Assembly: GCF_021533835.1 (NCBI RefSeq) | Contig: NZ_JAKFYQ010000001.1 | Span: 1,896,427 to 1,928,426, forward strand | DNA: 32,000 nt | Direction of reading: 5' to 3' | From: Synechococcus sp. Nb3U1 | Lineage (GTDB): Bacteria > Cyanobacteriota > Cyanobacteriia > Thermostichales > Thermostichaceae | Part shown: positions 16,327 through 32,000 of the stretch, in pieces | Layout: each line of letters starts with the position of its first letter | Numbering within the stretch: position 1 is the first letter of the stretch | Notes under the pieces: model-generated | Database searches by the model: none | The model's input: only the letters and a program-made list of their open reading frames with translations | Told to the model about the DNA's origin: nothing | Translations under genes and position numbers: made by a program

Positions 16327-16397
16327 GGCTAACGGGAATTGTTGCATCTTATAACGCCCAGCACCAACATCTCCCTTCAGTCCGCTCCAACCGGGTT
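16327..16397 (-). repeat. attC-1 (terminal, degenerate) major part; its last heptamer GTTATGC lies at 18234-18240 on the far side of the IS
   Basis: GGCTAAC...AGTCCGCTCCAACCGGGTT. The 3' half is near-identical to attC-3 (AGTCCGCTCCAGCCGGGTTGTTATGC). Removing 16398-18233 restores CCGGGTTGTTATGC exactly. Confidence 0.7.
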
Positions 16398-16420
16398 TAT
16401 GGGGAGACGGAACAGCAAAG

Positions 16421-16486
16421 GAGAGGAGACGACCATGCAGTGAGCGACAGTCAGATGTCTACTAACATATCGCTTCGCTCCTCTCA
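16421..16486 (+). repeat. Stem-loop module 1 in the IS 5' non-coding region
   Basis: Closing stem GAGAGGAG/CTCCTCTC. Internal blocks GACGACCAT and GATGTCTACTAACATAT are shared with module 2. Confidence 0.75.
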
Positions 16487-16540
16487 TAGAGATCGCCGAG
16501 AGCCAGAGAAATGGTAATAGGAAAAGGGACTGGGCTAGGG

Positions 16541-16603
16541 ATTGAGGACGACCATCCAACGTCAGACAGCCCGATGTCTACTAACATATTGCATCGCCTC
16601 AAC
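16541..16603 (+). repeat. Stem-loop module 2 in the IS 5' non-coding region
   Basis: Closing stem TTGAGG/CCTCAA. It has the same internal blocks GACGACCAT (16547) and GATGTCTACTAACATAT (16573), 119 bp downstream of module 1, and a different variable segment. Confidence 0.75.
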
Positions 16604-16744
16604 CTTGACCGGCTTCCTTCAACGAATTCTACGTGCTTCGCACACGCTTCGCGAACAGGGAGTGGTGACAGACACCTTCCATAATCTCTTCGCTCAGAAG
16701 CAGGCCGCCCAGTTCCTCACAACAAACTATCCCCAACTTAGCTG

Positions 16745-18046
16745 ATGGAAAGAACCTTTGTCGCCTACATCGGCATCGACTGGTCAGATCGCAAACACGA
16801 CATCTGTCTGTACGACCCCGAGAGCGCACAGCGAGAATACAGCGTGATTGGCGCTCAACCGCAAGAGATTGCCAATTGGGTTGCGACCTTGCAACAGCGA
16901 TACGGCAACAGCCCAATTGCCATCTGCCTGGAGCAAAAGCGAGAACCCCTGATTTACGCGCTGTGCCAGTACGAAAACCTAGTGCTGTTTCCCATCAATC
17001 CGCGCACGGTTTCCAACTATCGGCGAGCCTTTCAGCCCTCACGAGCCAAATCAGACCCCGTGGATGCCCAGATTTTGATTGAGCTGTTGCTCAAGCACCC
17101 TGACAAGATTCCCCCGTGGCAACCCGCATCCTGTGAACTGCGGGCTTTGCGGCAGTGGAGTGAATCTCGCCGCATGCTGGTGGGCGAGAAGGTGCGGTTG
17201 ACCAATCGTATGACCGCTGCCTTGAAAAACTTTTATCCCCAAGTGCTGGATTGGTTTGAGGATAAAGATACTCAAGTGTTTTGCGACTTTATGAGTCAGT
17301 ACCCTGACCTCCGCTGCGCCCAAGCAGCCTCGGCTGAGGAATTGACTCAGTTCTTCCAGTCTCATCGAGTCATCCGCCGTAGCGCCATTGAGCGGCGCAT
17401 TCACCAAATCCAAACCGCTGGCATCCCGCTGACAGAAGACCCAGGCATCGTCAAACCGATGCAGTGGCTGGTGCAAACGCTGGTGATTCAGCTCAAGGCA
17501 CTCTTGTACAGGCTTGATGAGTTGAATCAAACGATTGAGCAGTTGTTTCAGTCTTTGCCAGATGCAGCGTTTTTTGATGCTTTACTTGGAGCAGGTCCTC
17601 ATCTTGCGCCTCGGCTGCTGGTTGCCTTTGGCGATGACCGCAGTCGCTTCGGCAGCGCCCAGGCGTTTATGAGCTATATCGGCATTGCACCGGTCAAAGA
17701 GGAGAGTGGCAAGAAACGCTGGACGCATTGGCGCTGGAGTTGTCCAAAGTTCTTGCGGCAGTCCTTTGTAGAGTGGGCTGACCAGTCGCGGCGACACTCA
17801 TCGTGGGCCAATGCGTTCTATCAGCAGCAGCGGCGATCGGGCAAAAGTCATCCTAAAGCGGTTCGCGCTCTGGCGTATAAGTGGGGACGAATTCTCTGGC
17901 GCTGCTGGCAAGACCGAGTGCCCTATGACGAAGACCGCTATCTGGCGGCGCTCCAGCGGAAGAGGTCGCCGCTAGCAGCGATGCTAGTCCAAAGCCCAGT
18001 TGAGGTGACTGTTACAGCAGGTAAGTGCGGCAATTCTACGGTTTAA
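16745..18046 (+). CDS. IS110-family (DEDD / RuvC-like + Tnp domain) transposase-recombinase
   Basis: YIGIDWSDRKH..., ICLEQ, AKSDPVDAQILIELL, and C-terminal YIGIAPVKEESGKK motifs typical of the IS110/IS1111 family. Confidence 0.9.
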   Translation: MERTFVAYIGIDWSDRKHDICLYDPESAQREYSVIGAQPQEIANWVATLQQRYGNSPIAICLEQKREPLIYALCQYENLVLFPINPRTVSNYRRAFQPSRAKSDPVDAQILIELLLKHPDKIPPWQPASCELRALRQWSESRRMLVGEKVRLTNRMTAALKNFYPQVLDWFEDKDTQVFCDFMSQYPDLRCAQAASAEELTQFFQSHRVIRRSAIERRIHQIQTAGIPLTEDPGIVKPMQWLVQTLVIQLKALLYRLDELNQTIEQLFQSLPDAAFFDALLGAGPHLAPRLLVAFGDDRSRFGSAQAFMSYIGIAPVKEESGKKRWTHWRWSCPKFLRQSFVEWADQSRRHSSWANAFYQQQRRSGKSHPKAVRALAYKWGRILWRCWQDRVPYDEDRYLAALQRKRSPLAAMLVQSPVEVTVTAGKCGNSTV

Positions 18047-18280
18047 GTCACGCTAAAAGACACGTGACAGTTCAACGGATGGAACGTATTTAGGAATGAA
18101 ACATTGAATGCAACGTAGCCAACCTCGGGCTGGCTTATGGTTTGCTGCGTTTAGAGTCTGTGCATCAATTTACTCAGTACCTTTTCACGGTTGACTGTTG
18201 ACTCCGTCTCCCTCAGGGTCTATGTTATGCGGCTGTCGGCATTTGGGAAACTACGGCACCAACACCGAAGCTTGTAGGAC

Positions 18281-29805: not shown

Positions 29806-30048
29806 ATGGAAACCATCAAGATTGAAATTCTAGGAACAGGCTGCAAAAAGTGCCAACAGCTAGAGGCAAATGCCAAAGAAGCAGTAGCAAATCTGAATCT
29901 TGCGGCGGAAGTCGTGCATGTTACCGATCCCGTGGAAATTGCGATGCGCGGGGTCATGTCTACACCTGCCCTAACAATTAACGGTAAGGTTGTAGGCAAA
30001 GGTAAAGTGATGACCAGTGAGGAAATTCAGCCGCTCTTGCAAACATAG
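29806..30048 (+). CDS. Thioredoxin-fold redox-active disulfide protein (Thioredoxin_3 / MTH895-like)
   Basis: 80 aa with IEILGTGCKKCQQL (a CxxC motif) and ...STPALTINGKVV. Confidence 0.8.
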   Translation: METIKIEILGTGCKKCQQLEANAKEAVANLNLAAEVVHVTDPVEIAMRGVMSTPALTINGKVVGKGKVMTSEEIQPLLQT

Positions 30049-30062
30049 AGGAGAGTAGAATC

Positions 30063-31061
30063 ATGTTCGATCCCTTTTATCCCTTTGATTGGTTAGCAAC
30101 GCAGATTGTCACAAAACTCTTGGGGCTGGAGGTTGCTTCTCATCTTGGCTCTAGTCTGCATTTCTTCCTCTACGATGTACCGAAAGTTTTAACACTGCTA
30201 ATTGTAATTAGCTTTATCGTTGGCACATTTCAGAGCTTTCTTGAACCAGAACGAGTTCGTTCGTTATTGGAAGGAAGGCGCACCTTTGCTGGCAATGTCT
30301 CGGCAGCGATTGTTGGCATTATTACCCCATTTTGTTCCTGTTCTGCGGTTCCCTTGTTTATTGGATTCTTAGAAGCAGGTGTCCCCTTAGGGGTTACTTT
30401 CTCCTATCTGATCGCAGCACCGATGGTCAATGAGGTAGCTGTAATCTTACTATGGGGATTATTTGGCATCAAGGTTGTTTTGATCTATATTGGCTTTGGT
30501 GTGGGCTTAGCGATCGCAGCAGGGTACATTATCGGACTGCTCAAACTTGAAAGATGGGTGGAACCCTTTGTTTGGGAACTAAAAAGATCGCGTCAAGGCA
30601 TGGTTGTCAATAATGAAAAGGATCTCAAAACCGTTGCTTTAACTTGGCACCAACGATTTGAGCAGGGCAGATTTCAATCTAGCGAAATTGTGCGATCAGT
30701 TTGGCTGTATGTTGTACTTGGCATTGCGATCGGTGCAGGAATTCATGGCTATGTGCCGACCGATTTTATTGTCAAATATGCAGGTGTTCGCAACCCTTTT
30801 GCAGTCCCACTTGCCGTAGTCTTGGGTGTGCCACTCTATGCCAATATCGCGGGAGTGATGCCCATTACCGAAGCATTAGTAAACAAAGGAATGCCGCTGG
30901 GTACTGTATTAGCATTCACGATGGCAGTCACCGCCCTGTCATTTCCTGAAATCGTGATTCTCAAGAAAGTTTTGCGCCCTCAACTCTTAGCTGTATTTGT
31001 TGGACTGATGACTGTTGGGATCATTAGCGTTGGCTACATTTTTAATTATCTCCTTGCTTAA
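30063..31061 (+). CDS. DUF318 / ArsP-like permease
   Basis: 332 aa polytopic protein with the conserved ITPFCSCSAVPLF motif. Typically found next to the small thioredoxin-fold protein. Confidence 0.8.
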   Translation: MFDPFYPFDWLATQIVTKLLGLEVASHLGSSLHFFLYDVPKVLTLLIVISFIVGTFQSFLEPERVRSLLEGRRTFAGNVSAAIVGIITPFCSCSAVPLFIGFLEAGVPLGVTFSYLIAAPMVNEVAVILLWGLFGIKVVLIYIGFGVGLAIAAGYIIGLLKLERWVEPFVWELKRSRQGMVVNNEKDLKTVALTWHQRFEQGRFQSSEIVRSVWLYVVLGIAIGAGIHGYVPTDFIVKYAGVRNPFAVPLAVVLGVPLYANIAGVMPITEALVNKGMPLGTVLAFTMAVTALSFPEIVILKKVLRPQLLAVFVGLMTVGIISVGYIFNYLLA

Positions 31062-31118
31062 TCATTTTTTGTCTTCCAAGCATTACCGAGAAGATCGCCC
31101 CAACCAGGGAATAAGGGC

Positions 31119-31205
31119 ATCTAACGTTCGCAATCACCGGACACCAATGGTTGTTGCAATTAGCCGACCAGACTGAATTGTTCCGGTGCATCGCGGTTGT
31201 TATGC
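31119..31205 (-). repeat. attC-8 (87 bp)
   Basis: ATCTAACGTTCGCAATCACCGGACACC...GTTCCGGTGCATCGCGGTTGTTATGC. The arms CACCGGA/TCCGGTG pair. Confidence 0.8.
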
Positions 31206-31290
31206 CGCTGTGATCATCACGCCACATCCTCAAGATGCAAGCGGAAAGTTTCGACAAGTATGGTAACACCGGCTTCAAGGTCGAGATTTA

Positions 31291-32000
31291 TCATTCCAAC
31301 TTAAACAGGGGGAGATATAACCGCACTGCTAGCATCACAAAGATTGCTGCCCCAATACTGAGAACCATAACGCTGCCGACTGCCGCATAGGGATCGTCGT
31401 TCATAACCATTACTACACCCATCAATGCCACAGAGGGGGGGGGACCAAGGTAAACCATCCCATCAGGCCATACAGGGCGGGGGTTGCCCACGCGGCTCCT
31501 TTCCACAAACCAACTGCTGAGGCCAGCGTGATCGGCAGAACGATACCCAAGTCCAGCAGGAACATCGACCAAAACATGGCTAGGTCATCGGCTACCTCCT
31601 TCGGGAGGGTCTGACCACCCGGCAACACATTCAGGTAGCGGGAGACCACAAAGGCTGCCAGAACTAAAAGGACTAAAGACCAAAGTCGGGCGGCAGGGTG
31701 AGGCAATGGAGGCAAGGTAGCCATCCCATTCTAGGAGCGAATCAGTATTCCCATCCCCAGAATGAAAACGCCTAGATGAAACAGAATGAACGATGGCACA
31801 TCGTCATAGTTAGGCCCAACGATGTACTGGACAAACATGTAGACCACGTTTGCCGCCGGGGCAAATGCCAGCACAGAAGCGACAGGATGACCCCGGTAGG
31901 TGAGGATTGCCGCCGCAATGCCCAAGGGCACCAGCACAACGAGAGAGAAGAGTTCAAGTCCTCGGGTCTGGTTGAGTAAGGTTTCGGAAAGGGGATAGAT
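31291..32000 (-). pseudogene. Polytopic membrane protein of unknown family, N-terminus outside the window, disrupted twice
   Basis: The frame is open from 32000. An in-frame TAG lies at 31731-31733 (...GMGILIRS*NGMATLPP...). A frameshift at the G9 tract joins ...GWFTLVPPP to SVALMGVVMVMNDDPY... Confidence 0.6.
31435..31443. repeat. G9 (C9 on the coding strand) homopolymer at the frameshift point
   Basis: Nine consecutive G read directly. A tract of ten would restore the reading frame. Confidence 0.9.

Follow-up and report, generated by a model that had tools for sequence, protein, structure and literature searches.

Chromosomal integrons are thought to be reservoirs of mobile gene cassettes, including resistance and anti-phage genes, and to our knowledge experimental integron work has been done almost entirely on Proteobacteria. 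Sedentary integrons of the Vibrio cholerae superintegron type are long, co-oriented chromosomal arrays with interspersed toxin–antitoxin modules and mostly non-resistance cargo, defence genes included. [quoted passage not shown] In Cyanobacteria, integrons have been reported in surveys (Boucher 2007; Nemergut 2008) and appear in the IntegronFinder survey that defined CALINs; a Cyanobacteria-specific attC covariance model exists for a sequence and structure type conserved across the group (Ghaly et al. 2021, PMC8352920), many cyanobacterial proteins are already named 'integron integrase' at NCBI, and defence systems in integron cassettes have been published. Here we analysed a 32,000-nt stretch of DNA (the window) from Synechococcus sp. 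Nb3U1 (contig NZ_JAKFYQ010000001.1, positions 1,896,427 to 1,928,426). Its part from 16.3 to 32 kb, together with at least 9 kb beyond it, is very probably a chromosomal integron gene-cassette array.

The array shares with the V. cholerae superintegron its length, co-orientation and chromosomal setting, interspersed toxin–antitoxin genes and mostly non-resistance cargo including defence. Open reading frames (ORFs) running into their own attC and the architecture of the attC sites are likewise those of sedentary chromosomal integrons. Unlike the superintegron, it has heterogeneous attC sites in place of a homogeneous V. cholerae repeat, and multi-gene cassettes of 2.4–4.4 kb. It resembles a CALIN in having no intI in the examined sequence, but with at least 13 sites it is larger than 93% of those described. 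Its sites probably belong to the cyanobacterial attC class of Ghaly et al. (2021). The array is thus a good new example of a known element type, not a new kind. An earlier reading of the window, made from its letters alone (the sequence-only reading), had found such an array unfamiliar in this cyanobacterial background, a novelty that the surveys of 2007–2008, Cury 2016, the Ghaly 2021 model and the NCBI protein names all predate. What the array offers is a clean cyanobacterial case, well annotated and from a strain that is both in culture and sequenced, with testable sites and a predicted bottom strand.

The window was extended with L001, a 17-kb Logan contig from the Nb3U1 Illumina run SRR17483484 that matches the window at 100% identity over 6668 nt and reaches 9 kb past it, adding five further sites (E9–E13, window-equivalent 33085–40995). 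L001 came from an exact look-up of the ArsP permease; such protein look-ups gave Logan contigs of this run only, and the methyltransferase has no record. Array figures cover these 41 kb (window plus extension); the upstream end of the array lies beyond them. Altogether the array has 13 or more attC sites, all in one orientation, and spans 24.7 kb or more; the sites are 57–163 nt in length and of at least four sequence types. The sites are as follows, with scores from two covariance models, R1 built from nine array sites and R2 built from 150 foreign sites with no sequence of Nb3U1.

16327–16397, + strand: left part of attC E1, the terminal (intI-distal) site, degenerate, placed from the sequence
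18224–18230, + strand: E1 right box GTTATGC (R'' box on the bottom strand), its reverse complement one base off the E2 left box
20723–20848, + strand: attC E2, 126 nt, long-loop variant of the E4 type; box chain, 5' arm near-identical to that of E4
21298–21384, + strand: attC E3, 87 nt; R1 81.5 bits, R2 65.0 bits
22184–22275, + strand: attC E4, 92 nt; R1 57.5 bits, R2 44.6 bits, DNA fold z = -5.8
25894–26056, + strand: attC E5, 163 nt, atypical; box chain perfect to E4 and one base off to E6
26795–26881, + strand: attC E6, 87 nt, the top-scoring site; R1 91.4 bits, R2 89.8 bits
28624–28709, + strand: attC E7, 86 nt; R1 80.6 bits, R2 77.5 bits
31119–31205, + strand: attC E8, 87 nt; R1 74.3 bits, R2 46.2 bits
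window-equivalent 33085–33170: attC E9, followed by E10 to E13, to at least 40995

The sequence-only reading had proposed eight elements in the window. Seven lie exactly where it placed them; E1 is degenerate and split by an insertion sequence (IS), and its right box is at 18224–18230 and not at 18234–18240, where the sequence reads TGTCGGC and holds no E1 box. The distance of 13 bp that it gave between the array and a core gene stands with the E1 left box it chose, and becomes 35 bp with TTATAAC at 16349–16355, which is just as good a candidate for the left box. Neither covariance model found such sites in window 1–16300, which is ordinary housekeeping DNA, or extra attC sites inside the large cassettes.

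The R boxes carry a clear crossover signature. None of the 13 sites departs from AAC and GTT, and the seven elements at the stated coordinates open with NNNYAAC and close with GTTNNNN. Six of the 13 left boxes are less strict than RYYY in their outer four bases, so that the RYYYAAC-like form given by the sequence-only reading holds for the AAC and not strictly for every box. Strict RYYYAAC and GTTRRRY heptamers arise readily by chance, the window having 33 and 37 of them respectively, so that the boxes alone prove nothing; what decides is how they relate to one another and what lies between them. At the 12 junctions of the window and extension, the right box is a perfect reverse complement of the next left box nine times and one base off three times. 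The two boxes within any element differ by 1–3 bases, as the same reading had noted along with correctly quoted heptamers and the neighbour pattern itself. This amounts to 3 mismatches over 12 junctions versus 28 over 13 within-site comparisons, a total that 0 of 200,000 permutations reached (p < 5e-6). Among the matches listed from other cyanobacteria, 60 junctions averaged 0.52 mismatches, compared with 1.78 within sites and 1.82 after shuffling, and 170 of 178 full-length foreign sites had AAC...GTT at the model ends. Such a chain of neighbouring boxes is the footprint expected of recombination inside the R box, and because a box matches its neighbour better than its own partner, a repeat consensus is insufficient as an explanation.

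On the + strand each site has four parts, namely the R box of 7 bp, a brief spacer that stays unpaired, a pair of stems of about 6 bp each that are set apart by single bulged bases in the 3' arm, and a variable loop. Minimum free energy folding is a poor discriminator, with only E4, E6 and partly E8 beating shuffles; covariation was needed. Nine sites of about 87 nt align well, and the structure imposed on them comprises an R box paired over 7 bp, a spacer of 3 nt, two stems of 6 bp each and a third stem of 3 bp. Across the 22 modelled pairs, 81% of cells were paired versus 30–45% with the partners slid, and 13 of the 22 showed compensatory change on both sides. The covariation score was 0.389 versus 0.179 in shuffles, none of 500 of which reached it. 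Extrahelical bases, whose conservation had been another suggested check, are confined to the 3' arm, with a proximal C and a distal T six pairs apart, both invariant in 9/9 aligned sites. The 150 foreign cyanobacterial sites, taken from the matches listed, have the T in 150/150 and the C in 148/150, the T being prescribed by the scan pattern for one or more sites at each locus. R1 matched only E sites in the window and extension, and found E11, which was outside its training set, at 40 bits. Both models scored the sites in a strongly asymmetric manner, at 38–91 bits on the + strand and at most 28 bits on the - strand.

A search with a pattern derived from the array sites, run on a single genome for each species, returned at least 120 loci, mostly titled cyanobacteria from many orders, with a minority of otherwise-labelled contigs of metagenome-assembled genomes. 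R1 identified 180 sites in 100 of the loci listed and 42 in 25 (five repeated from the first set). Among the matches listed, 44 of the 48 multi-site loci were one-stranded, with a median spacing of 1160 bp. Conversely, R2 scored the sites of the window and extension at 38–90 bits. R2 also matched the attC sites of ereA2, aadA5 and aac(6')-IIc (21.7–27.2 bits, E = 5e-5 to 1e-3) in an outside control of two class 1 integrons from plasmids (L123 and L124). Each match lay just downstream of its own gene on the strand opposite the cassette genes, that is, on the bottom strand. The class 1 alignments show the core GCGGCGG...CCG-T-CCGC and two bulges six pairs apart as in the array sites, together with the same R box, spacer and two stems; the array sites differ in loops about 30 nt longer, and the cross-model scores are only 22–27 bits. 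The bulged-base geometry is that of canonical attC bottom strands, indicating that the + strand of the window is the one that folds and is recombined. The gathering-threshold Rfam search of the window gave no matches, Rfam being without an attC family.

The proximal extrahelical base is C in the cyanobacterial sites (9/9 in the array) and G in the three class 1 sites, while the distal T is common to both. The conserved C is a natural variant for studying how IntI recognizes attC.

Orientation of the array was derived from loci in which the same site family lies beside an integrase. Full or partial integrase genes were found in 12 of the at least 120 loci by tblastn with IntI1 (query 100% identical to annotated intI1) and cyanobacterial integrases. 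Two are intact, scoring 458.4 bits (L066) and 462.2 bits (L104) on the TIGR02249 'integron integrase' model, for which the cut-off is 265 bits, and are 50–52% identical to IntI1. In 11 of the 12 integrase-bearing loci among the matches listed, the array leads away from intI in one direction and the model strand points in the other. This geometry and both class 1 controls together indicate that the + strand of the window is the attC bottom strand and that cassettes are read on the minus strand, with intI expected on the + strand at higher coordinates, as the sequence-only reading had proposed. Also as described there, the cassette ORFs are mostly on the minus strand and two of them stop inside their own attC (TauE at 22227 in E4 and a 63-aa ORF at 26841 in E6). 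Three GC-rich cassettes have a GC-rich attC on their low-coordinate side; the cassette/attC GC match (r = 0.53, p = 0.08, versus -0.30 for the other assignment) lends weak support to the orientation. The distal array end abuts a conserved gene, with no intI there.

The remaining integrase-bearing locus, from Gloeocapsopsis crepidinum (L036; 331–416, 1357–2302), has a frameshifted integrase and an attC on the unexpected strand. It may reflect an inversion or a decaying integron.

Cassettes are shared with other genomes. Window 26799–27541, comprising E6, the 63-aa ORF and a PIN gene, is 92% identical in nucleotide sequence to Nodosilinea sp. P-1105 (L108). The identity begins exactly at the R-box AAC, the four outer box bases being different, and the Nodosilinea copy is 1.5 kb from an intI gene. 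Copies of E6 that are 96% identical occur in two further loci (L084 and L111), and a truncated PIN cassette is present in Hormoscilla. The MerR and Trx3 genes (71% and 69% aa identity) recur between attC sites in an Egbenema array (L008), in the same direction relative to the attC strand. The array gives direct evidence of cassette movement between distant cyanobacterial orders.

In several cyanobacterial genomes that are complete or nearly so, the attC family occupies two or three loci that are megabases apart, namely CP089922.1 (L012, L046, L107), NZ_CP182236.1 (L008, L014) and KL662191.1 (L011, L109); L107 has mixed orientation. Such genomes hold several arrays or CALINs each.

Nb3U1, a hot-spring cyanobacterium, represents the early-branching lineage T1, which is moderately thermophilic and forms the sister group of the Synechococcus A/B (Thermostichus) clade. 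An integron is mentioned in neither of the two genome papers, and our literature search found no paper devoted to cyanobacterial integrons and no integron described for the T1 lineage. We tentatively propose that this is the first integron in the T1/Thermostichales branch, lying within a pan-cyanobacterial cassette pool that has one conserved attC type (proximal C), in which cassettes, restriction-modification and toxin–antitoxin systems among them, are exchanged between orders as far apart as those of Nodosilinea and of Thermostichus relatives, and which is parasitised by a new attC-targeting IS110-type element, presumably RNA-guided; as a whole, this picture is possible rather than probable.

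The array would work in the following manner. Past window-equivalent 41 kb, the attI site, the promoter Pc and intI (+ strand) are predicted. The tyrosine recombinase IntI would recognise the bottom strand in its folded form, its cut falling after the second A of AAC and before the C. Each cassette consists of one gene or short operon followed by its own attC on the minus strand, and would be excised as a circle by attC x attC recombination and inserted at attI. Every insertion would leave the outer four R-box bases with the neighbouring cassette, giving rise to a chain of complementary boxes. The structure of the sites, their strand asymmetry, the crossover signature, membership of the site family and the sharing of cassettes between genomes are shown directly by the data; that an integrase is present and active in Nb3U1 we infer.

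A number of observations weigh against this reading. E1 is detected by neither R1 nor R2; when reconstructed it folds no better than shuffles, and its left arm is not complementary to the right. E2 gives only partial, weak matches to R1 and R2 (11.8 and 10.2 bits). E5 is missed by both models and also folds no better than shuffles (z = +1.08, no single long palindrome). The complementary arms with unpaired bases described by the sequence-only reading are thus borne out by covariation and one-armed bulges in the aligned sites but not by the folds of E1 and E5. R2 is not fully independent, its training sites having been found by R1, which was itself built from array sites. The 'small, mostly single-function' units of the sequence-only reading are only partly so: cassettes range from 449 to 4444 bp, several being large and containing 3–5 genes, and one inter-site gap of 4444 bp is above the usual 4-kb clustering rule. 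The species is known from one strain only, so that cassette turnover has no strain comparison. Finally, tblastn with IntI1 and two cyanobacterial IntI found no intI in the 41 kb, which agrees with the absence of an integrase from the window noted at the outset and leaves the predicted integrase past position 32000 without a match up to window-equivalent 41 kb; an intI pseudogene and attI were likewise absent from the 41 kb. None of the 120 best integron-integrase homologues is labelled Nb3U1, where only about a quarter carry names and absence is not demonstrable. Two integrases known only from Logan belonged to other samples, and a metagenome scan with a 34-mer from the extension end gave no match.

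With no intI in the 41 kb, the distal part of a complete sedentary integron and a CALIN look alike. We lean towards a complete sedentary integron because of the size of the array, the preservation of its sites and the near-identical foreign cassette. The locus could instead be a CALIN, a real attC cluster whose intI was lost or rearranged away, or which arose by secondary-site insertion, with cassettes that are frozen or mobilised in trans; we consider this possible, at somewhat less than an even chance. It would account for the lack of an intI or pseudogene in 41 kb and of an Nb3U1 label among the homologues, and for a distal attC that is decayed and IS-disrupted. CALINs are common and mostly have no nearby intI pseudogene (Cury 2016, PMC4889954), and some complete cyanobacterial genomes have the site family at several distant places. 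However, the upstream end of the array lies beyond the 41 kb covered, the sparse naming of the homologues makes the label argument weak, and CALINs with more than 10 attC sites are rare (6.6%; Cury 2016, PMC4889954). Well-preserved sites, a near-perfect box chain and a cassette 92% identical to the Nodosilinea copy, suggesting recent integrase activity, also favour a complete integron over a CALIN.

Explanations without an integron are very improbable. Intergenic imperfect palindromes with many copies in many cyanobacteria, in mixed orientation at a few loci (4 of 48 among the matches listed; L107), recall repetitive extragenic palindromes (REP) or miniature inverted-repeat transposable elements (MITE), which would have been spread by transposition or by a REP-associated tyrosine transposase (RAYT)-type enzyme, the box pattern being a by-product of consensus. 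Yet each box is closer to the neighbouring element than to its own partner, the family adjoins TIGR02249-positive integrases in a fixed geometry, the model cross-detects class 1 attC, and the sites are co-oriented and spaced at cassette length. Moreover, the 16 kb of housekeeping DNA has none, and related genomes have none either: Thermostichus relatives carry the orthologous flavin adenine dinucleotide (FAD)-binding protein gene and have no attC sites within 10 kb of it. A REP/MITE family was rejected, the copies being clustered, co-oriented, integrase-linked and box-chained. We see equally little chance that the modules were moved by another site-specific recombinase, such as Xer at dif-like sites (pdif) or a shufflon-type invertase. 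The pdif systems also have gene modules bounded by short inverted motifs, and no local integrase of any kind is visible here, but the sites are structured hairpins of 57–163 nt with one-armed bulges and not 28-bp dif-like sequences, they are co-oriented and not alternating, and the recombinases beside the family elsewhere are integron integrases. Chance was considered as an explanation and rejected. An integron-type array with attC sites, as claimed by the sequence-only reading, is upheld by covariation, bulges, the crossover signature, cross-detection by R2 and the TIGR02249-positive integrases beside the family.

The cassettes of this integron array and their genes, identified by Pfam and PADLOC, are listed below from the distal end.

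18231–20722, - strand: cassette of E1, type II restriction-modification pair (Pfam, PADLOC)
18281–19774, + strand: C5 cytosine methyltransferase with helix-turn-helix domain (PADLOC MTase_II, 2e-108)
19760–20524, - strand: SinI-like endonuclease (PADLOC REase_II, 1.6e-42)
20849–21297, - strand: cassette of E2, 60% GC, AHSA1/SRPBCC-family protein at 20916–21260 (- strand; Pfam)
21385–22183, - strand: cassette of E3, MntA-HepT toxin–antitoxin
21743–22033, - strand: MntA nucleotidyltransferase antitoxin (Pfam NTP_transf_2; PADLOC candidate family PDC-S09)
21415–21753, - strand: HepT toxin (Pfam HepT-like)
22276–25893, - strand: cassette of E4, large and multi-gene (Pfam), with the next six features
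22227–23105: TauE/SafE
23102–23647: rhodanese-YgaP
23657–24376: metallo-beta-lactamase (MBL)-fold protein
24434–25003: alternative-oxidase-like protein
25181–25360: duplicated MBL 5' end
25437–25712, + strand: ArsR
26057–26794, - strand: cassette of E5, 59% GC, Glyoxalase_6-domain protein at 26097–26657 (- strand; Pfam)
26882–28623, - strand: cassette of E6, with a membrane protein (27630–28187), PIN (27129–27551) and the 63-aa ORF (26841–27032)
28710–31118, + strand: cassette of E7, four genes in the reverse direction (Pfam), which are the next four features
28799–29254, + strand: MerR
29323–29751, + strand: PTP-like protein
29806–30048, + strand: Thioredoxin_3
30063–31061, + strand: ArsP_1 permease
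31206–32000, - strand: start of the next cassette, 53% GC, small membrane ORFs, continuing past the window to E9
extension: N6/N4 methyltransferase cassette
extension: small paired ORFs and a ParE-like toxin

Pfam and PADLOC thus support the view, already taken from the letters of the window, that the cargo is rich in defence and addiction functions (restriction-modification and MntA-HepT), the PIN assignment being weak at 20.0 bits, below the Pfam gathering cut-off of 23.6 bits. Type II restriction-modification, MntA-HepT, PIN and a HerA/NurA-like system beside a methyltransferase add to the view of integrons as defence stores. The last of these is a 4.4-kb, 59% GC cassette in the extension (L001 10461–14904, window-equivalent 35793–40236) that encodes a DNA methyltransferase, a HerA-like DUF87 ATPase of 704 aa and a weakly NurA-like protein, and matches mad8 and the HerA models of PADLOC. 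Possibly a defence system, it is of unusual size for a single cassette.

Within the E4 cassette, a 150-nt direct repeat (D1; 24235–24384 and 25219–25368, 89% identical) duplicates the 5' end of the MBL-fold gene and its upstream region. The two copies bracket the alternative-oxidase-like gene, as though it had entered between ArsR and the operon divergent from it. D1 is where the short-read contig L001 breaks.

Two of the sites that R1 and R2 fail to recover in full retain recognizable attC features. E2 keeps the bulged T (GCGGCGG-T-TCGCTG). E5 retains only its R boxes and one stem of 8 bp (GCTTCAGC with GCTG-C-AAGC), in whose 3' arm a C is bulged, around a long, internally structured loop. 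As for E1, its right arm CAGTCCGCTCCAACCGGGTT resembles the right arm of E3, whereas its 5' arm has decayed. E1 lies beside the conserved FAD-binding gene, whose protein is 100% identical to one of Synechococcus sp. Nb3U1. It is the distal end of the array, decayed and hit by an attC-targeting IS110-family element:

16398–18223, + strand: IS110-family insertion sequence splitting E1 (Pfam DEDD_Tnp_IS110, Transposase_20)
16745–18046, + strand: its transposase

The IS entered E1 precisely where the spacer GTT meets the R box GTTATGC. An IS occupies the same attC position in the same orientation in L066, an unrelated Elainellaceae integron (about 6233–7994, minus strand), and the two transposases are 63% identical. 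A DEDD-transposase IS with fixed position and orientation at one attC end, seen here in two unrelated genomes, is a feature shared with the IS1111-attC group (Tetu & Holmes 2008; Post & Hall 2009; cited in PMC11187229). In contrast to that group, the present element has cyanobacterial hosts, and its long non-coding region lies upstream of the transposase gene, a layout that PMC11187229 gives for the IS110 type and not for IS1111. It may represent an undescribed, presumably RNA-guided, attC-targeting IS group, and could be useful as a natural example in which a structured site is targeted under RNA guidance.

The non-coding region of the IS holds TCTA(C)TAACA(A)TAT, which is partly complementary to the TTGTTA target junction. 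This putative guide motif is carried by a 64-nt repeat (D2; 16415–16478 and 16534–16597, 75% identical and 119 nt apart), of which the L066 element has a single copy.

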